From positions 32,001-96,000 of the forward strand of contig JABIAG010000003.1 of assembly GCA_018653365.1 (NCBI GenBank): DNA of 64,000 nucleotides. The letters are read 5' to 3'. Origin of the DNA: Candidatus Woesearchaeota archaeon (GTDB lineage: Archaea; Nanobdellota; Nanobdellia; Woesearchaeales; JABIAG01). Both the position numbers and the translations under genes were made by a program. Numbering within the stretch: position 1 is the first letter of the stretch; the number at the start of each line of letters is the position of its first letter. Below are positions 2,522 to 49,037 of the stretch, piece by piece. The notes under the pieces were generated by a model that saw nothing but the letters and a program-made list of their open reading frames with translations, had not been told where the DNA came from and searched no databases.

Positions 2522-3033
2522 TCTTCTGCCTCCATTGTTACTTTATAATTTTCTTTCATGAATTTTATTGCATCGTCTTTGTTGATCTTGTGTTTTTGTG
2601 CTACTTTCTTCTTTTGAGTTTTTCTGTTTTTGATTCTGTAACCTGGTCTTTGTAATGTGATACATACTTGTAATCCAAGGGTTCCAATTTCAGGAGCGTA
2701 TTTTAGTCCGGGTATGTCAATGTATTCGCTAATTCCAAAAGAGATACTTCCATTTTGATCAAAATTATTTTCGCCAAGTACAAAGTCTTTAGCTTCAACC
2801 ATTCTTTTTAATACTTCTTCTGCAACCTTTTTTCTTAGTGTGATTTTACATCCAATTGGTAGTCCAGGTCTTAATCCCCAGCCTGCAATTCTTTTTTGTG
2901 TTATGGTCTTAATTGGTGTTTTTTGTGTTATGATTTGTAATAGCTTTAGACCTTTTTCTAGTTGGTCTTGGCTTTTTCCAGTCCCTATATTAAGGGTAAC
3001 CTTTTCTACTTTTACTGCTTGCATCGGATTCAT
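2518..3033 (-). CDS. rpl5: 50S ribosomal protein uL5
   Basis: MNPM..KVTLNIG, PIGCKITLR, NFDQNGSISFGI, RPGYRI. Confidence 0.97.
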   Translation of the reverse strand: MNPMQAVKVEKVTLNIGTGKSQDQLEKGLKLLQIITQKTPIKTITQKRIAGWGLRPGLPIGCKITLRKKVAEEVLKRMVEAKDFVLGENNFDQNGSISFGISEYIDIPGLKYAPEIGTLGLQVCITLQRPGYRIKNRKTQKKKVAQKHKINKDDAIKFMKENYKVTMEAEE

Positions 3034-3719
3034 TTTATCTTAACGTATGTTTTACCTTTTCCCACTACATATGCGTGGGTTTTTATAGTTTCAAATACTT
3101 CATTTTTTTCATTTTTGAATACTAATTTATTTCCTTCTACGCTTTCTACAATTCCAACAGTTCCGATGTGTTTTCCACCAGTTAGTAATATGTTGGCACC
3201 TTTTTCAAAGTTGAATTGTTCTAATATTTTTTGAGTTGGAACTTCTATTGCTACAGTTGCTTTTACTTTTACATCTGTTTTTTCTACTAGGATGTTTCGG
3301 CCATCGAATAGGTTTAGTTGTATTTTTTTTCCAACCATTACTTTGCCTTTAACTTTGTTTAATTTGATTTTTGCTTCTTTTTCATCAATTTCTATTAGGT
3401 TTAGTTTTCCTCGATCATCCAGGATTATTCTATAATTTTTTTTGATTTTTGGGAAACTAATTGTGTCCATTAGTCCAACCATTCTTTTGTGATCTTTTGT
3501 TTGTTTTCCATCAACAAGTACTTCTTGGTGGTGTAGTATGTCTCGGATTTCTTTTCTTGTTTTTCCGATTTTTAATAGGTCTCTTAATGCTAAAACTAGG
3601 GGAATCCCATATTCCATGGAGTGACTTCCAGGTTTTGGTTTTGCCACATACTTTTCTTCTTTTTTCTGGATCTTCCAGTTTTTGCTTGTTGCTATTCGTT
3701 TTAAGTGATTTTTTACCAT
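3030..3719 (-). CDS. rps4e: 30S ribosomal protein eS4
   Basis: HLKRIA..W, PKPGSH, VGLMDTI, TGGKHIG; start set at ATG 3719. Confidence 0.95.
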   Translation of the reverse strand: MVKNHLKRIATSKNWKIQKKEEKYVAKPKPGSHSMEYGIPLVLALRDLLKIGKTRKEIRDILHHQEVLVDGKQTKDHKRMVGLMDTISFPKIKKNYRIILDDRGKLNLIEIDEKEAKIKLNKVKGKVMVGKKIQLNLFDGRNILVEKTDVKVKATVAIEVPTQKILEQFNFEKGANILLTGGKHIGTVGIVESVEGNKLVFKNEKNEVFETIKTHAYVVGKGKTYVKIK

Positions 3720-3720
3720 T

Positions 3721-4266
3721 TTAGTTTTCCTTTTTTTCTTCTGTTTTTTTAACAGGTTTTGTTTCGACTTTAGTCGTGCCAGAAGTTTTCTTCTGTTCAC
3801 TTTCTTTCTTTTCTGTTGTCTTGGGTTTTTCCCGAGGCTCAGAAGCTTTTTCTTCTGTTTTCTTAGGCTTTGCCTGAGTAGTTTTTGATTCTGATTGGAT
3901 TGTTTTCATTCTTTTTTTGTCTTCTAAGTTTAGTTCCATTATCATGATGTTTGAGGGTTCTAAAGGGTATAATGATCTGCTTCCGTCTCTTTTTTTGAAG
4001 TCTAATCCTTGTATGTAGATTTTTGTGTGTTGTACACTTACTTTTTCTACACTACCTGTTTTTCCTTTGTGTTTTCCTCTCATTACTTTTACTTTGTCAC
4101 CTTTTTTTATGCCAATTGTTCGAATTTTATGTTGGGTTCTTAGTTCTTTACAAAGATGCCCTCCTAAAAACTTCTTTTTGATATGTAATGGAGCATTATG
4201 TCTATACTTTCTTTGTTTTCTTGGTTGTGTACTGTTTTTCCAAGTTGTTGAAAATGTAGTTTTCAT
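3721..4266 (-). CDS. rpl24: 50S ribosomal protein uL24 with charged C-terminal tail
   Basis: STQPRKQRKYRHNAPLH, KGDKVKVMRGKHKG (KOW motif). Confidence 0.96.
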   Translation of the reverse strand: MKTTFSTTWKNSTQPRKQRKYRHNAPLHIKKKFLGGHLCKELRTQHKIRTIGIKKGDKVKVMRGKHKGKTGSVEKVSVQHTKIYIQGLDFKKRDGSRSLYPLEPSNIMIMELNLEDKKRMKTIQSESKTTQAKPKKTEEKASEPREKPKTTEKKESEQKKTSGTTKVETKPVKKTEEKKEN

Positions 4267-4267
4267 T

Positions 4268-4669
4268 TTATACTGTTATCCTCGCTAATTTTGATATTGC
4301 AGGCCATCTTTCGCATACTTCTTTTGCGATTGGTCCTTTGAACATTGTTCCTTTTGGATTTCCTTGATCGTCTTTTAAAATTACTACTGCGTTATCTTCA
4401 AATTTTACTCTTGTTCCATCTTTTCTTCGGAATTCTTTTCTTTGTCTTACAACAACTGCATTGAATACTTGTTTTCTCATATCTGGTCGTCCTTTTTTTA
4501 CTGTTACTACAACCATGTCGCCAATTCCTGCAGCAGGTAATCTTCCTTTTACTGTTTTTCCTCTTTTTACTCCAAATATTTGAACGAGTTTTGCTCCAGA
4601 GTTGTCACAAGGTTCAACTTTTGTTCCTACGTTTAGTCCTCTTGTTACTCTAGCGCTTATTGCTTTCAT
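4268..4669 (-). CDS. rpl14: 50S ribosomal protein uL14
   Basis: CDNSGAK, VKFEDNAVV, KGPIAKE. Confidence 0.97.
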   Translation of the reverse strand: MKAISARVTRGLNVGTKVEPCDNSGAKLVQIFGVKRGKTVKGRLPAAGIGDMVVVTVKKGRPDMRKQVFNAVVVRQRKEFRRKDGTRVKFEDNAVVILKDDQGNPKGTMFKGPIAKEVCERWPAISKLARITV

Positions 4670-5130
4670 TCTTCTTTTACCTTTGATTCAGATTCTTTTG
4701 ATTCTGTTTCTTCAACTTCTTCTTCAGTTTCTTTTTTCTTTTCTGTTCTTTCACTTCTTGTTCTTCCTTCTTCAAGTGCTTCTTTTCGTTCTTCGTAGTG
4801 TTTTTCTTTTCCTTGATTTTCGACAATTACGTGATGAACAGTTTTTGATAAGGGTCTTGTTGCAAATACTTTTACAATGTCTCCCTCTTTTGCGTGTATA
4901 CATTCAGGGTTGTGAACGGTGATTCTGGTTTTTTTCTTTGTGTACCTTTCATATTTTGGTATTGGTACTTTTCTTGTCCATTCTATTACTGCTGAATTGT
5001 GCATTTTTGCTTGAACTACTGTTCCAACAAATGATTTTTTCTTTACATTGATGTTTCCATGGAATGGACATTTTTGATCTGTACATTCCTTTTCAGGTCC
5101 TTTTATTCCAAATATTTCGTTTGTTTTCAT
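4666..5130 (-). CDS. rps17: 30S ribosomal protein uS17 with acidic tail
   Basis: CTDQKCPFHG, PKYERY, VHNPEC, TRPLSKT. Confidence 0.96.
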   Translation of the reverse strand: MKTNEIFGIKGPEKECTDQKCPFHGNINVKKKSFVGTVVQAKMHNSAVIEWTRKVPIPKYERYTKKKTRITVHNPECIHAKEGDIVKVFATRPLSKTVHHVIVENQGKEKHYEERKEALEEGRTRSERTEKKKETEEEVEETESKESESKVKEE

Positions 5131-5396
5131 TTTAGTGATACTCTTTCTTCGGGTCTTTTTTCAAGAAGTCTGCCCTCTATTAAAAACGTTTGCCCTTTGT
5201 TTTCGATTTCGAATGTGTTTTGTTGTTTTATCATTTTTTTGTTTCCGTTTTTTGTTTTGATTGTGATTGTACTTTTTGTTTCATCGACAATTTTGCCAGT
5301 GATTCCTTTGTTGGATGGGTTGTTGCTTTCAACAACTTTTACTTGTTTTCCTATGATCTCTTGTGTTATCATTTTCTTTTCCTGAAAATGATTCAA
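5127..5396 (-). CDS. rnp1: RNase P protein component 1 (Rpp29/Pop4)
   Basis: EIIGKQVKVV, GITGKIVDETK, RPEER; usual position between SUI1 and S17; start may be 5372. Confidence 0.9.
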   Translation of the reverse strand: MNHFQEKKMITQEIIGKQVKVVESNNPSNKGITGKIVDETKSTITIKTKNGNKKMIKQQNTFEIENKGQTFLIEGRLLEKRPEERVSLK

Positions 5397-5418
5397 AAAT
5401 CATTTTTGATTTTTGTTA

Positions 5419-5754
5419 TCATCGGGTTTTTGGTTTTCGTGTGAAACTTTTAACTTCGATTGTTTCAGGTGCAAATCCGATTTTGATTAGTTCTTCTTTG
5501 ACCTTTTGTTGATGATTTCCTTGTAACTCAATTTTTCCATCTTTTGCTGTGCCTCCGCACGCAAATTTCCCTTTGAGTTGTTTTGCAAGGTTTCTAATGT
5601 TAATTTCTTTGTCGTCTACGCCTTCAACAATTGTGTATGGTTTTCCGAATTTTTTCTTGACCATACTTACAACAATCTTTTGTGTTTCTTTTGCTATGCT
5701 TTCACACATACAAAGTTCTTTTGGAAGTCCACACATGGTGCATATTTCGCTCAT
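5419..5754 (-). CDS. sui1: Translation initiation factor SUI1 (aIF1)
   Basis: CGLPKELC, LKGKFACGGT, IELQGNH. Confidence 0.95.
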   Translation of the reverse strand: MSEICTMCGLPKELCMCESIAKETQKIVVSMVKKKFGKPYTIVEGVDDKEINIRNLAKQLKGKFACGGTAKDGKIELQGNHQQKVKEELIKIGFAPETIEVKSFTRKPKTR

Positions 5755-5966
5755 TGCTTATCTTCAGCCTCTTTTTCAAGTTTTCTTGAATTGGTGATTG
5801 TTAATATTTTTGCGATTGTTTTCTTTCTTTGTTTTAACATTCCTGGACTTTTTGGTGGAGTCCCTGTGGATATTTGCGAGTAGTCCTGCATTAACTCTTT
5901 TTTTAATTCTTTTAACTTATTTTGCAAGTCAGCATTATTTAAATCGCGAAGTTCTTTGGATTTCAT
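5751..5966 (-). CDS. rpl29: 50S ribosomal protein uL29
   Basis: ELRDL, LKELKKEL, RKKTIAKILT. Confidence 0.93.
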   Translation of the reverse strand: MKSKELRDLNNADLQNKLKELKKELMQDYSQISTGTPPKSPGMLKQRKKTIAKILTITNSRKLEKEAEDKQ

Positions 5967-6733
5967 TATTTTTTAGCCTCTTTTTTCTTTTTTGATTCTT
6001 TTTTCTTGGGCTTTGCTTGAGAGTCATCACTTTTCGGTTCACTTTTTTTAGTTTCTTTTTTCTTTGAACTTTTTTCGTCTGATTTTTTTGTTATTTCTTC
6101 TTCTTTGATATCTTCAGATTCTTCGATTGTTTCTAGTTCTTCTCTTAATTCTACTTTATCAGGTAGTTCTACATCACCGGGCATGATTCTTACCTGGATT
6201 CCCACAGTTCCACTTTTTAGGTTTGCAACTGTGTATGCTTTTAAAACTCCTATTTTTGCGATATGTCCTGATTTTTTCAAGTAGCCTTGATAGAATCTCC
6301 ATCTTTTTGCTCTTGAACTTGGAATTTTTCCTGAAATTAATATTTCAGTTCCTAGTGCACCTGCTTTCATTATTGCTTCTAGTACTTTATGACCTATTGA
6401 TTTAAATCGTCCCGATCCAAATCTTTCTAGTGTTGTTGCGATTCTTTCTGCAACGATTTTTGGATCTAGGTCTGGTTGTTGTACTTCTTCAATTTCGATT
6501 TGTGGATTTTCTAGGTTGAATCGTTTTTTTAGTTGTGTTGTTAGTAATTTGATATTTTCCCCTTTTCTTCCTACTACTAGTCCTGGTTTGGATGCTGTGA
6601 TTAGTATTTTTTCCCCTAGTGGAGTTTTCTTAAGTTTAACATTTGATTGTCCTGCTCTTTTTAGGACCTCATTTACGTATTCTTTTATCAAATACTCTTT
6701 CAGGTTTTCTGATACAAATTTTCTTTCAATCAT
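5966..6733 (-). CDS. rps3: 30S ribosomal protein uS3 with charged tail
   Basis: KPGLVVGRKGENI KH domain, GALGTEILISGK, GTVGIQVRIM. Confidence 0.97.
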   Translation of the reverse strand: MIERKFVSENLKEYLIKEYVNEVLKRAGQSNVKLKKTPLGEKILITASKPGLVVGRKGENIKLLTTQLKKRFNLENPQIEIEEVQQPDLDPKIVAERIATTLERFGSGRFKSIGHKVLEAIMKAGALGTEILISGKIPSSRAKRWRFYQGYLKKSGHIAKIGVLKAYTVANLKSGTVGIQVRIMPGDVELPDKVELREELETIEESEDIKEEEITKKSDEKSSKKKETKKSEPKSDDSQAKPKKKESKKKKEAKK

Positions 6734-7419
6734 TTTTTAATTTCCTCTGCTTGATCTTTAGGAGCTTCAGTTTTTTCTTCTGTTTTTTTAACAGGTTTTG
6801 TTTCAACTTTAGTCGTGTCAGAAGGTTTCTTCTGTTCACTTTCTTTTGATTCTGTTTTCTTAGGCTCTGCCTGAGATTCAGAATCTTTTGATTCTGTTTT
6901 AGGAGTTTCAGTTTTTTCTTCAACCTTTTTTTCTACCGTGGTTTCTGTTTTTTTCTCGGTTGTTCCTTTTTTTGCAATCTTTTTATCGTCTTTTTTTGTT
7001 ATTTCTTCAACAACGATTTCAATATGTGTTGATTTAGTTTTAAGACCTCTCCGTCTTCCGTAATGGTAACTTCTTGATCCTTGATTTGGGATCATGGTTT
7101 TAATAATTAAACTGTCTGTGTTTAATCCTTTTGAGTTTGCATTTGCTTCAGCACTTTTTAATACGTTTAGTATGAATGTTGCTGCTTTGATTGGGTAATT
7201 TCCTGGACCAATTCCTTTTTTGTGACCTACGCTTGCAATTTTTCTACAAGGGACTGCTATTTTCATTAGGATAACATCTTCTAGCATTTTTTTTGCTCTT
7301 TGAACGTCTTTTCCTTTTATGAAATTGCTAATTTCTAAACTTGCTTTTCTTGAAATAGGTAATCCTATTCCGATTGCAATCGCTTCTCTTTCACTTAATT
7401 GTTTTGTTGTTCTCGTCAT
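6730..7419 (-). CDS. rpl22: 50S ribosomal protein uL22 with long charged tail
   Basis: ISRKASLEI, GNYPIKAA, SAEANA, THIEIVVEE. Confidence 0.95.
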   Translation of the reverse strand: MTRTTKQLSEREAIAIGIGLPISRKASLEISNFIKGKDVQRAKKMLEDVILMKIAVPCRKIASVGHKKGIGPGNYPIKAATFILNVLKSAEANANSKGLNTDSLIIKTMIPNQGSRSYHYGRRRGLKTKSTHIEIVVEEITKKDDKKIAKKGTTEKKTETTVEKKVEEKTETPKTESKDSESQAEPKKTESKESEQKKPSDTTKVETKPVKKTEEKTEAPKDQAEEIKK

Positions 7420-7799
7420 TTAACTGATACCGCACTACTTGATCTTGTTGCACCTACTCCTGGAGCTGAGTGTGCTAGTCTTTTTCTTGTTAATACAAAG
7501 TCGCCCAGTCTATATCCGATCATTTCTTCGGTTATGATTATTTTTTCAAAGCTTTTTCCTGAGTATACTGAAATTGTTTTGTCTATCATTGAAGGGAGTA
7601 TGATTATTCCTCTGCTATGAGTTTTTAGTTTTCCATTTCCTTTTTCTAAAGCAGTCATGAATTTTTTTTGTTCATCTGTTAGTCCTCTTGTTAGAGTTCT
7701 TCTTGCTCTTGTTGGAAGTAATGTTATGAATTCTTTTAGCGGCATTGCCTTTAATTCTTCTGTTGTTTTTCCTCTGTATTTGAATATTTTTTTTGCCAT
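7416..7799 (-). CDS. rps19: 30S ribosomal protein uS19
   Basis: FKYRGKT, EMIGYRLGDF, PGVGATRSS. Confidence 0.97.
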   Translation of the reverse strand: MAKKIFKYRGKTTEELKAMPLKEFITLLPTRARRTLTRGLTDEQKKFMTALEKGNGKLKTHSRGIIILPSMIDKTISVYSGKSFEKIIITEEMIGYRLGDFVLTRKRLAHSAPGVGATRSSSAVSVK

Positions 7800-22144: not shown

Positions 22145-22911
22145 TTAAACAACCTCATATAGTTCAAGAATATATTGTTTGCGGTTTCTTTTTCGTCAAA
22201 TCCTTTTATTTTTGCTATTTCTTTTATTGTAACTGTTATGTTTGCGGGTTCATTTGGTTCTCCCTTAATTGGGCTTAGAAATGGCCCGTCGGTTTCTGTT
22301 AGTAACTGATTAATATTAACCTCTTTCACCATGCTTTGAAAATTAGATGCACGATTAACATTTGTTGGAATAGTAAAATAATATCCTCTCAAAGCCCCCT
22401 CTTTCACTAGATTTTTGTTTCCGCAAAAGCAGTGCATTACAACCTTTTTAGCATTTTCGCGTTCAAGTATTTCTAAAACTTCTTTTTCTGCTTTTCGTGA
22501 GTGTACAATTAGTGGTTTATTAAGTTCTTTGGCTAATTTAATCATTTTAACAAATAATTTTTCTTGTTCTTTTTGATTAATATTTTCTGAACTAAAATCC
22601 AGTCCCACTTCTCCAATACCCATAATGTCCTTTTGATGTTTTTTAATGAATGCAATCTCTTCTTCAACATCACACTCCTTAAACGCTTTCCCTGATGCTT
22701 CATACTCTTTTTTCAGAGCATCTTTTGGGTAAATTCCTAAAGAACATTCAACAATTTCATATTCTTTTTTCAATTCAAGTGCTTTTCTATTTGTTTCATG
22801 ATCAATTCCAGAAGTAATAATCTTCTTAACACCGCTCTCTTTCGCTCTTATAATTGCATGATCTAAATCATTTAACAATTCTAGATGATTGTGTACGTCT
22901 ACTAGTTCCAT
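22141..22911 (-). CDS. tatD: TatD family DNase
   Basis: DVHNH, GIGEVGLD, VHSR, MHCF, LTETDGPFL; start set at ATG 22911. Confidence 0.93.
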   Translation of the reverse strand: MELVDVHNHLELLNDLDHAIIRAKESGVKKIITSGIDHETNRKALELKKEYEIVECSLGIYPKDALKKEYEASGKAFKECDVEEEIAFIKKHQKDIMGIGEVGLDFSSENINQKEQEKLFVKMIKLAKELNKPLIVHSRKAEKEVLEILERENAKKVVMHCFCGNKNLVKEGALRGYYFTIPTNVNRASNFQSMVKEVNINQLLTETDGPFLSPIKGEPNEPANITVTIKEIAKIKGFDEKETANNIFLNYMRLFK

Positions 22912-43184: not shown

Positions 43185-44303
43185 CTACAATCCTAATGTT
43201 TTAAGCACTTTCTCAGAATTAAATTCTTCAATGTCTTTATACTCCTGACCCATCCCAAGATACATTATTGGTTTTCCAGTTACATAACTAACAGATATTG
43301 CCGCTCCGCCTTTTTCATCTATGTCCGCTTTAGATAATATGATCCCGTCAATTTCTACTGCTTCATTAAATTTGGTTGCTTGTTCTACACAATCATTTCC
43401 CGTAATGCTCTCTCCAACAAAGATTTTCAAATCAGGATTTGCAACACGAATTATTTTTTTCATTTCATCTACAAGATTAGCATTGCTATGTAGCCTTCCC
43501 GCAGTATCTATTAATACAACATCTATGCCTTTTGCTTCTGCATGTTTGATTGCATCAAATGCTACTGCTGCAGGATCTGATCCATAATCATGTTTGATCA
43601 TCTTAACTCCTAGTTTGTCTGCGTGTTCTTGTAGTTGGTCTATTGCTGCTGCTCTGAATGTGTCTGCTGCTGCCAGTACTACTGTTTTTTTCTTATCGAG
43701 CATCATTTTTGCAAATTTTGCAATGGTTGTTGTCTTTCCACTTCCATTTATTCCTAAGAAACAAATTACTAAGGGCGTTTTTTCTAATTTTTTTTCTAAA
43801 TCTATGTTTTCAACATTCAAAACTTCTTTTATGCTTTCTCTTAAACTGGTTTGTATTGTTTCACTTACTTTTTTTATTGGTTTGTCAACAATATTTTCTT
43901 TTAGATCTTCTTTGATTTTTTCTATTACTTCTGTTGCAACATTATTTTCGAGTAGCATTACTTCCAGGTCCCAAAATAAGTCTTCAAACTTTTTTTCGCT
44001 TATCTTTTTTGATGTTATTTTGTGAAAGAATCCTTTTTTCTTAGGCTTGTCTCGAGGCTCAGAATCCTTTTTTTCTTCTTCAACAGCGGGTTCTATTTCT
44101 TCTTTTTTTGTTTCTTTTTCAACAACAGTTTCTTGTTTTTTTTCAACTTTTTTTTCTTTTTCTTTGATCTTTTTTTGTTTTTTTTCTACAACTTTTTCTT
44201 CTTTAGGAGTTTCAATCTCTTCTACATCTTCAGCTTCTTCTTCTACCTTTTTTGAGAACTTATCTACTGCATTCTTTAATTTATTTTTAAGAAATTTAAA
44301 CAT
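43185..44303 (-). CDS. ftsY: SRP receptor FtsY
   Basis: GINGSGKTTT, DTFRAAA, DTAGR, SKAD, GMGQ; charged N-terminal region. Confidence 0.97.
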   Translation of the reverse strand: MFKFLKNKLKNAVDKFSKKVEEEAEDVEEIETPKEEKVVEKKQKKIKEKEKKVEKKQETVVEKETKKEEIEPAVEEEKKDSEPRDKPKKKGFFHKITSKKISEKKFEDLFWDLEVMLLENNVATEVIEKIKEDLKENIVDKPIKKVSETIQTSLRESIKEVLNVENIDLEKKLEKTPLVICFLGINGSGKTTTIAKFAKMMLDKKKTVVLAAADTFRAAAIDQLQEHADKLGVKMIKHDYGSDPAAVAFDAIKHAEAKGIDVVLIDTAGRLHSNANLVDEMKKIIRVANPDLKIFVGESITGNDCVEQATKFNEAVEIDGIILSKADIDEKGGAAISVSYVTGKPIMYLGMGQEYKDIEEFNSEKVLKTLGL

Positions 44304-48127: not shown

Positions 48128-48586
48128 CTAGATTTCGTTTATATTATAATCTTTCACGCTTTCATTATCATCTGCGAATGTAAATGTTGCTTCTATTGTT
48201 TTTCCTTGTAATAAGTAAGGCATCCAGTGGGTGTCTGTTTTCCACATCTTATCTAATTGAAGGGCATTAAGGTCAAACCATTCTACAGTCATTTCTTCAC
48301 TTTCTGTTGGTTCACCAGTATACATCTTTGCTACAAATAGATGTACTTGTTGTTTCCATTCGGGTTTTTGTGGAAAGGTAAATATTATGTTTCCTCTGTT
48401 TTCCAGGTTTGTAACTTTCACTCCTGCTTCTTCTTCTACTTCTCGTATTGCTGCTTCTTCTATGCTCTCGCCCTCTTCTTGTTTTCCGCCAAATCCATTA
48501 TATTTGCCTGCGCCAAATCCGCGTTTTTTCATTCCTAATAGAACTCTGTTTCCATCAATAATTAAACATAATGTTTTTTGCATCAT
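48128..48586 (-). CDS. Nudix hydrolase, MTH1-like 8-oxo-dGTPase
   Basis: LLGMKKRGFGAGKYNGFGGK, Nudix box AIREVEEEAG, ESEEM, MW..D..W. Confidence 0.9.
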   Translation of the reverse strand: MMQKTLCLIIDGNRVLLGMKKRGFGAGKYNGFGGKQEEGESIEEAAIREVEEEAGVKVTNLENRGNIIFTFPQKPEWKQQVHLFVAKMYTGEPTESEEMTVEWFDLNALQLDKMWKTDTHWMPYLLQGKTIEATFTFADDNESVKDYNINEI

Positions 48587-48632
48587 TTTATTTTTTATCT
48601 GATAAAGTGTTCAAAAATCTTTGATTTTTGTA

Positions 48633-49037
48633 TCATTTCCATAATCCCGCATCCACGAGTGCATCTTTTACACTCTTAACAGTATTTAATTCTTTTATTT
48701 CATTTAGTGTAAAGAATTTTGCTTCTGATAAATCATCACTTGCTTTTATTGTTGGATCGTTTGATTTTGCTAAGTGAAAGAATACTATTGCATGATAATT
48801 TCCAGGAGTGTTGATCACTTCTTGATGTCCAAGTTGTTTTACAATCTCAACATCCATTCCGGTTTCTTCTTTTATTTCACGAATTGCTGCGTCTTGTATT
48901 GTTTCCCCCCAGTCTACTCCTCCTCCGGGGATAACCCACATACCTTCGCAGTTTGTTTTATTTCGTCGTCCTAACAATACTTTGCCTTCGTGTTCGACTA
49001 TTACTGCGGATGTAATTCTTGGTTTTGGTTCTTCCAT
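48633..49037 (-). CDS. Nudix hydrolase (ADP-ribose pyrophosphatase-like)
   Basis: WVIPGGGVDWGETIQDAAIREIKEETG, ASDD. Confidence 0.9.
   Translation of the reverse strand: MEEPKPRITSAVIVEHEGKVLLGRRNKTNCEGMWVIPGGGVDWGETIQDAAIREIKEETGMDVEIVKQLGHQEVINTPGNYHAIVFFHLAKSNDPTIKASDDLSEAKFFTLNEIKELNTVKSVKDALVDAGLWK

Follow-up and report, generated by a model that had tools for sequence, protein, structure and literature searches.

How do the C-terminal tails of two non-homologous ribosomal proteins come to be encoded by nearly the same DNA? The question is raised by a 64-kb stretch of a Candidatus Woesearchaeota archaeon genome (the window, to which all bare positions refer), in which the genes for uL24 and uL22 each end in a tail rich in lysine, glutamate, threonine and serine (K/E/T/S). 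Few genes are as conserved as those for ribosomal proteins, whose operon forms the backbone of phylogenies of the archaea; among these proteins, uL22 and uL24 both lie at the ribosomal tunnel exit, and no functional link is claimed from that position. The genome holding the window, G000 (G-numbers denote genomes, L-numbers loci or contigs and P-numbers proteins; C1 and C2 are contigs of G000), comprises 1.09 Mb in three contigs, has 34% G+C and is 95% complete, and its nearest named relatives are metagenome-assembled genomes of Candidatus Woesearchaeota. Comparisons of the DNA make it likely that the distal uL22 tail was copied in frame to give rise to the uL24 tail, and that a tract bearing a small two-hairpin element was later converted between the two tails.

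The first-pass annotation of the window had claimed two separate matches between the tails, one of 73 in 76 nt and the other of 25 in 26 nt. Both matches were recovered by alignment (Table 1) and both are in frame in the two genes, whose identities were confirmed by Pfam. What did not stand was their separateness, as they are parts of one collinear homology that spans almost the entire uL24 tail and is interrupted in uL24 by an additional unit of 42 nt. An ungapped in-register match (3727-3861 with 6766-6900) extends over 135 nt, or 45 codons, at 86% identity, and gapped alignment makes almost the whole uL24 tail collinear with the distal uL22 tail. Blocks 1 and 2 are 3 nt apart in uL22 and 45 nt apart in uL24, the offsets differing by 42 nt because uL24 has an additional 14-codon unit between them; this unit is 79% identical to the adjoining one, so the duplication that produced it must be old. 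A 42-nt tandem array was considered as an explanation for these units, which lie 42 nt apart at 69-79% identity, but Tandem Repeats Finder called no array and the feature was kept only as an old internal duplication of uL24. Identity is uneven along the 135-nt register, with 73/76 in block 1 versus 43/59 over the remainder, and the older parts of the tails are about 75% identical. The two tail copies are direct repeats in the same orientation, 3,039 nt apart, with uL22 upstream.

Table 1. Positions in the window of the uL24 and uL22 tails, of the DNA that they have in common and of the genes around them. R2 is the covariance model described in the text.
Feature	Position	Strand	Basis or remark
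uL24 (L24P/eL26 family) gene, 181 aa	3721..4266	-	Pfam PF16906 (Ribosomal_L26) and KOW, residues 12-124
uL24 C-terminal K/E/T/S-rich tail, residues 125-181, 57 aa, lineage-specific	3724..3894	-	Alignment with uL22 tail; tail peptide ESEQKKTSGTTK
Shared block 1, uL24 copy, encodes KESEQKKTSGTTKVETKPVKKTEEK	3732..3807	-	73/76 identical to 6771-6846
Two-hairpin element, uL24 in-frame copy, GTGAA-CAGAAG-AAAA-CTTCTG-GCAC-GAC-TAAA-GTC-G	3765..3800	-	R2, 50.4 bits, E 1.9e-10
Extra diverged 14-codon unit in uL24 between blocks	3808..3852	-	42-nt repeat spacing; gapped alignment
Shared block 2, uL24 copy	3853..3878	-	25/26 identical to 6850-6875
uL22 gene, 229 aa	6730..7419	-	Pfam PF00237, residues 20-138
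uL22 C-terminal K/E/T/S-rich tail, residues 139-229, 91 aa	6733..7005	-	Tail peptide ESEQKKPSDTTK
Shared block 1, uL22 copy, encodes KESEQKKPSDTTKVETKPVKKTEEK	6771..6846	-	73/76
Two-hairpin element, uL22 in-frame copy	6804..6839 (model hit 6792-6856)	-	R2, 43.4 bits, E 1.5e-8
Shared block 2, uL22 copy	6850..6875	-	25/26
Operon gene order: uL3, uL4, uL23, uL2, uS19, uL22, uS3, uL29, SUI1, Rpp29, uS17, uL14, uL24, eS4, uL5, uS14, uS8, uL6, eL32, eL19		-	

That low-complexity coding DNA of this K/E/T-rich kind should have become so similar by chance or convergence is barely conceivable. K/E-rich tails in G000 often have short exact matches (19-27 nt) to one another, and to that extent the idea has a basis, but both the codon-shuffle and the genome-wide empirical nulls are far exceeded. 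When the codons of both tails were shuffled 2,000 times, the best-matching 76-nt window reached 45.0±2.0 (maximum 53), against the 73 observed, and the local score between uL22 and uL24 was 175, where shuffles gave 35±6 (z=24). For an empirical control, 81 K/E-rich segments were taken from the open reading frames (ORFs) of G000; the 3,202 pairs of segments from different genes had a median score of 26 and a 99.9th percentile of 76. Codon choice provides additional evidence, as codons for the same residue are identical at 23 of 24 sites, rare ACG and CAG included, where 12.7 would be expected from genome codon usage (P<5e-6). The earlier argument that identity at synonymous positions points to recent copying of DNA and not to convergence is borne out by these codons and nulls, and the similarity goes beyond both the shuffled and the genomic K/E/T-rich controls.

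A whole-genome search for the block found these two full copies and no others in the 1.09 Mb of G000. The pair is the strongest dispersed repeat of the genome, besides a contig-end overlap and the repeats inside one repeat-protein gene. When the 135-nt block was searched by BLAST in 400 genomes belonging to the order, only short (≤60 nt) low-complexity or element matches came back.

A third tail may be a partner in this sharing of DNA. The C-terminal tail of an L7Ae/eL8-family protein outside the window (G000:C1:312659-313129) is identical over 27/27 nt, encoding ESKDSESQ, to the uL22 tail at window 6870-6896, and the eL8-uL22 pair has the second-highest score of the 3,202 K/E-rich pairs (92; z=9.2). 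Additionally, a motif DSE(P/S)(Q/R)xxP(K/E) of the uL22, uL24 and eL8 tails recurs in the N-terminal linker of FtsY (window 43185-44303, minus strand). Written as [DENA]S[EQ][PS][QR]..P[KE], it gave four matches in uL22, uL24, eL8 and FtsY versus 0.02 expected, and it was not used as evidence because the pattern had been defined after those matches were seen.

An assembly artefact, in which one locus was wrongly given the sequence of the other, is very improbable for the two-copy locus, even though the repeat is evidently able to mislead assemblers. P0140, a member of the uL22 protein cluster, ends like uL24; on the two contigs that carry it (L068 from ENA and L069 from Logan), uL22 leads through 34 identical bases into the uL24 stop and eS4, with the junction at window 6771 / 3732, so that 3,039 nt and seven essential genes are skipped. 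We read these contigs as assembler collapse, and a rare but real repeat-mediated recombinant is also possible. In G000, by contrast, the copies differ at three fixed positions and their flanks are unique. An independent ENA assembly from another sample (L057) reproduces the 6.6-kb locus at 99.97% identity, with both copies and the three differences, and the exact uL24 and uL22 proteins were found on 44 and 38 contigs, one of them of 1.11 Mb, whereas an organism represented by the collapsed contigs would be without seven essential genes. The joining of the two loci that the first-pass annotation had named as its possible refutation does therefore occur, but as a collapsed form and not as the two-copy form. 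The first 124 nt of C1 and of C2 (C1:1-124, C2:1-124) are exact reverse complements of each other, which is probably an unjoined assembly overlap.

What, then, does the shared DNA consist of? The 135-nt region folds far better than its dinucleotide or codon shuffles (z -4.6 to -5.2), which the tails of uS3, uS17 and eL32 do not, and a BLAST match of the block in G001, a genome of the same genus, lay in non-coding DNA just past a stop codon and provided the lead to a family of repeats. The family consensus reads AAAATGCTC, hairpin 1, GGCAC, hairpin 2 (4 bp and a tetraloop) and GAAT, giving an element of about 36-40 nt. Eight intergenic copies were found in G000 and others in G001, G002 and G004, together with three coding copies in G000. 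When 12 intergenic copies were aligned, 94% of the cells paired, versus 27-44% with a slid partner; six pairs showed double (compensatory) changes, and the covariation score was reached by none of 500 shuffles. The covariation, the hairpin pairing counts and the membership of the block core in the family are all results of the present analysis.

Membership was assessed with the covariance model R2, which was built from intergenic copies only. Its two best matches in the 64-kb window are the uL24 and uL22 copies, the former covering 3753-3817 when its A-rich flanks are included, and because no coding copy went into the model this constitutes an independent test of family membership. The three differences between the uL22 and uL24 elements comprise one in a loop, one in a bulge and one change from G-C to G-U, and both tail copies have a derived TGAAC in place of the TGCTC of the family. 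In a survey of 151 genomes sampled from the order, R2 found the family in 32, with 1-22 copies each. The unpublished genome G004 supplies a single row to alignment A2 and to model R1 and another to the table of tails (L039), and is excluded from A3 and R2; the R2 matches L091 and L100 belong to the unpublished genomes G124 and G135; no conclusion depends on any of these three. Rfam gave no match at E up to 1 on window 3000-7600, and for nine loci with intergenic copies it gave two sub-threshold matches (snoU36a, 27.3 bits; cow-rumen-3, 22.1 bits), both away from the element. A known RNA family was ruled out in that no Rfam match fell on the element copies. Two weak R2 matches in the window (22409-22471, E 0.011; 48585-48648, E 0.028; both on the minus strand) may be degenerate copies of the element.

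The intergenic copies have a preferred setting. Read as the reverse complement, six of the eight in G000 begin at, or no more than a few nt from, the stop codon of a gene in the same orientation, and close with GAGCA and then a T run. Among copies from other genomes, 35 of 51 have five or more consecutive A residues on the 5' side, which the opposite strand reads as a T run following the hairpins. In this orientation the element looks like a putative terminator or 3'-end element. The sense strand of uL22 and uL24 carries the opposite, A-flanked orientation.

Genes other than those for uL22 and uL24 have also received the element in frame. A NIP7-like PUA-domain protein of G000 (G000:C1:133712-134197; L088:1118-1603) contains it as 13 additional residues, CAQKSEISGTTTS, that are absent from G002 (89% identical), G001 and G003. 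Compared with their G000 orthologs, Rpp29 of G002 (L036:3953-4234) has gained 12 residues in mid-protein and uL18 of L056 (L056:9914-10441) has gained 13 at its C-terminus, and a K/E-rich protein of 611 aa in G020 contains a further in-frame copy. All in-frame copies use one reading frame (…Q-K…S-G-T-T…), and 40 of 51 sampled copies from other genomes are non-coding, having no spanning open frame of 80 codons. Insertion sites are A-rich, and A-rich runs of lysine codons look like the preferred target. Two variants in G020 (L120 and L138; G020:C1:402542 and 697069) have ATGAC for ATGCT, with the conserved ATG in frame, and ORFs that run into a hydrophobic stretch seem to take their start and initial ~15 residues (MTQKSEISGTTDVV… and MTQKLKIFGTTNVV…) from them.

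An element with such habits could in principle have entered the two tails separately, by in-frame insertion of one variant at each of two already homologous sites, with no recent conversion. That other genes have received the element in frame over spans comparable to a species split, and that it apparently prefers A-rich lysine-codon runs, would both suit that account, yet we consider it decidedly improbable. The element alone, at about 36-40 nt, cannot explain a 76-nt block because the flanks, identical over 34 nt 3' of the element and 12 nt 5' of it, lie outside the consensus, near-identity thus continuing well past the element while the older parts of the tails are much less similar. The derived TGAAC is common to both copies, the tails of G002 are alike within that genome without any element, and BLAST among the 400 genomes of the order found no intergenic master copy with the 3' flank …AAACAAAACCTGTTAAAAAAACAGAAG. 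When the 76-nt block is removed the tails are still similar (score 54 versus 25.7±4.3, P about 0.0005), which argues for a segmental copy and not for two element insertions.

The distribution of long tails among relatives bears on which of the two tails came first. Among relatives of the same order whose operons were compared, uL22 reaches 177 aa or more in 16 of 20, and uL24 is 126-145 aa long in 16 of 18; the exceptions are G002, the sister species, and G039, which is an unrelated case. Most of 120 uL24 database homologs measure 122-138 aa and that of G001 measures 133 aa, and two metagenome relatives have uL24 tails, P0002 (184 aa) and P0004 of contig L056 (160 aa). Given that long uL22 tails are common and long uL24 tails rare in the order, a long tail seems to be ancestral in uL22 and, within a small clade, derived in uL24.

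Comparison of tail DNA between species points to exchange after that origin. The score of uL22 against uL24 is 175 within G000, as above, and 119 within G002, while orthologs from the two genomes score 62 (uL24) and 107 (uL22) and non-orthologs across species 33-53; on the outgroup contig L056 the two tails score 41 (z=0.7). The stretches in common within G002 (36/36, 27/27 and 47 nt at 89%) are other sequences than those in common within G000. The G002 similarity stands at z=5.3 against shuffles, the weaker signal being due to the extreme simplicity of its tails. A within-genome similarity exceeding that between genomes in two lineages is, as far as these comparisons go, characteristic of concerted evolution through repeated interlocus gene conversion. 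At the DNA level, the uL22 and uL24 domains share only 82-85% identity between G000 and G002, so that the 96% tract of G000 must be much younger than the split of the species.

The site of the element was resolved in ortholog DNA alignments. Both uL24 and uL22 of G002 read GAAGAGAAAAAAACAGAAACAA… across it, with flanks in common with G000; G000 has the element at that one site in both genes and G002 in neither. The closest uL24 ortholog with the element, P0002, encodes VQKQTSDTTKGE there and has a diverged 3' flank (…TTKGEKGKENGKK), whereas the 3' flanks of the G000 elements are 34/34 identical between uL24 and uL22. As P0002 carries it, the uL24 element either predates the split of G000 and P0002 or was converted there too; and as the flank has diverged in P0002 while remaining identical between the paralogous sites of G000, recent conversion is favoured over constraint.

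Constraint deserves consideration in its own right, in the form of one old duplication whose central block would have been kept nearly identical by purifying selection, whether for an RNA or DNA structure or for the peptide, without any continuing exchange. In its favour, codon shuffles fold far less well than the block (z about -5), the hairpins covary across the family and the three differences between the copies break no pairs. Still, it appears unlikely to be the explanation: the identical 34 nt 3' of the element lie outside the family consensus and are not conserved in P0002, synonymous sites are identical throughout, and G002 has homogenised a different sequence. Furthermore, a rough count over the 45 in-register codons gave 11 non-synonymous versus three synonymous differences, a roughly neutral proportion, and therefore the peptide itself does not seem tightly constrained.

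We thus return to copying followed by conversion. In the lineage of G000, the distal uL22 tail would have been copied in frame to give uL24 its tail, and the two tails would already have been homologous before G000 and G002 split. They would then have exchanged sequence by non-reciprocal recombination (gene conversion) between direct repeats. The element family, normally resident in A-rich intergenic DNA at the 3' ends of genes, could land in A-rich, lysine-codon coding DNA, where it offers one open frame (…QK..SGTT…); it would have entered one tail in the G000 lineage, and conversion would have carried the element and its flanks into the other, the latest tract leaving 76 nt at 96% identity amid older parts at about 75%. 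The direction of tail origin, from uL22 to uL24, and the recombination mechanism are what we infer from the pattern. Gene conversion is recognised by within-genome copies that are closer than orthologs, found here in two lineages, and by a discrete high-identity tract with a derived marker, which was also found. Gene conversion and a small coding repeat element had been offered in the first-pass annotation as alternatives; both appear to apply together, and only the choice between them falls away.

Several points weigh against this account. The G002 signal lies on DNA of very low complexity, with a null maximum of 107 versus the 119 observed, and the clade sample amounts to three or four species that are non-independent. 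The element is present in uL24 of two species (G000 and P0002) and in uL22 of G000 only, a pattern that fits a latest transfer from uL24 to uL22, and for this latest tract donor and recipient could be either way round; the uL22 of the P0002 organism was not found in the protein database, the P0002 contig beginning at uL29. The higher identity of the block could come partly from hairpin constraint, given three structure-neutral substitutions, a number (n=3) too small for significance. As to mobility, no target-site duplication and no terminal inverted repeats were seen at three sites aligned to empty sites, where the DNA is A-rich and a duplication of 1-2 nt is possible. In G000, at 95% completeness, the Y1 transposase (PF01797) had no match and TnpB (PF07282) only one below the cut-off (16.6 bits). 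Finally, both the conversion and the production of the tails are read from the DNA.

Conversion between loci is itself an ordinary mechanism, and the present case resembles others in having a high-identity tract within older homology, similarity greater within the genome than between orthologs, and direct repeats 3 kb apart on one replicon. It differs in its partners, which are the appended tails of non-homologous essential ribosomal proteins of one operon.

For the element, the closest likeness is to the Rickettsia palindromic elements (RPEs), which were reportedly described by Ogata et al. (2000, Science 290:347; 2002, Genome Res 12:808). In-frame insertion of RPEs in many genes is reported in the passage of PMC10969869 that cites Ogata 2000 and 2002. 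As far as that passage describes them, RPEs share with the present element the multi-copy state, hairpin potential, occurrence both between genes and in frame in unrelated, often essential genes, a short hydrophilic peptide and a small reduced genome; conserved hairpins in multiple copies, and in-frame insertion that, as comparison with orthologs shows, leaves the ORF open, were both found here. The element differs from the RPEs of that source in being archaeal (DPANN) and in its length of about 36-40 nt, or 12-13 codons, versus about 100-150 bp. It also consists of two adjacent small hairpins with TGCTC and GGCAC boxes, the likeness considered here being one of kind, and it has spread between two genes by what appears to be conversion of its flanks.

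Terminator-like or short structured repeats of bacteria, such as the SPRITE of Streptococcus pneumoniae and repetitive extragenic palindromic (REP) elements, are mentioned in PMC10969869 and PMC3184786. From those mentions, the likeness is that of structured short repeats at the 3' ends of genes, with one orientation giving hairpin(s) and then a T run; the present element is archaeal, occurs also in frame in coding DNA, and was found in G000 with no transposase of the REP-associated (RAYT) or Y1 kind. Two further classes were tried and rejected, namely a miniature inverted-repeat transposable element, for which the aligned insertion sites showed no terminal inverted repeats or target-site duplications, and a REP/RAYT or IS200/IS605-derived palindrome, for which G000 yielded no cognate Y1 (HUH) transposase and no TnpB above cut-off. 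Lineage-specific, lysine-rich, low-complexity tails on conserved ribosomal proteins are also known from mosquitoes, where the histone H1-like extensions of RpL23a and RpS6 were judged independent in origin (Hernandez and Fallon 2007, as cited in PMC11764897); in contrast to what that citation conveys, the DNA here is demonstrably common to both proteins. Among open-access papers and bioRxiv preprints, no description was found of the element or of DNA common to ribosomal-protein tails.

If non-homologous members of one operon exchange coding DNA, with a structured repeat in frame, this would provide a concrete route by which disordered extensions of ribosomal proteins arise and become homogenised. 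Protein-coding palindromes have been described as a peculiarity of Rickettsia, and a second, unrelated case in DPANN would suggest a general link of reduced AT-rich genomes with tolerated in-frame selfish DNA. A broader proposal, whose chances we consider evenly balanced, is that Woesearchaeota carry an undescribed mobile two-hairpin element, the archaeal equivalent of the Rickettsia palindromes, targeting A-rich DNA, lysine-codon runs included, and seeding short peptides in proteins of the translation machinery (uL22, uL24, uL18, Rpp29 and the NIP7-like protein), that recombination spreads these peptides, and that the tails were built by selfish DNA and gene conversion and not by a selected tail function. 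On a practical level, the repeat collapses some metagenome assemblies (L068 and L069) with the loss of seven essential genes, and the tail regions should be masked in marker-gene alignments.

Concerning the tails as proteins, their composition suggests disordered, solvent-exposed polyampholytes. The best reading of the data would make them tolerated, solvent-exposed appendages and not sequence-specific modules, growing and becoming homogenised through slippage, element insertion and recombination in A-rich DNA. Other reading frames across both tails are also open, and an open frame alone is therefore weak evidence of tail translation.

The remaining observations concern the surroundings of the two genes. 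The first 10.5 kb of the window, on the minus strand, are an archaeal S10/spc ribosomal-protein operon, as identified from the ORF list and, for five genes, from Pfam. The uL24 stop TAA lies at 3723-3721 with the eS4 start one base after, at 3719, and the uL22 stop overlaps the uS3 start (ATGA). The mechanical eS4 ORF (3030-3800, minus strand) begins at a GTG inside the uL24 tail; the true start is almost certainly the ATG at 3719. That the block provides the next gene with an internal promoter or a coupling signal was considered and rejected, as its TTAAAAAA lies at unequal distances from the following starts (25 nt for eS4, 50 nt for uS3) and G002 shares a different sequence. Terminal extensions rich in K, E, A and P were observed in at least 12 ribosomal proteins of G000, namely eL8, uL10, eL14, uL15, uL30 (N-terminal), eL31, eL32, uS3, uS4, uS17, uL11 and an eS6-like protein, and they look like a lineage-wide habit that is not peculiar to uL22 and uL24.

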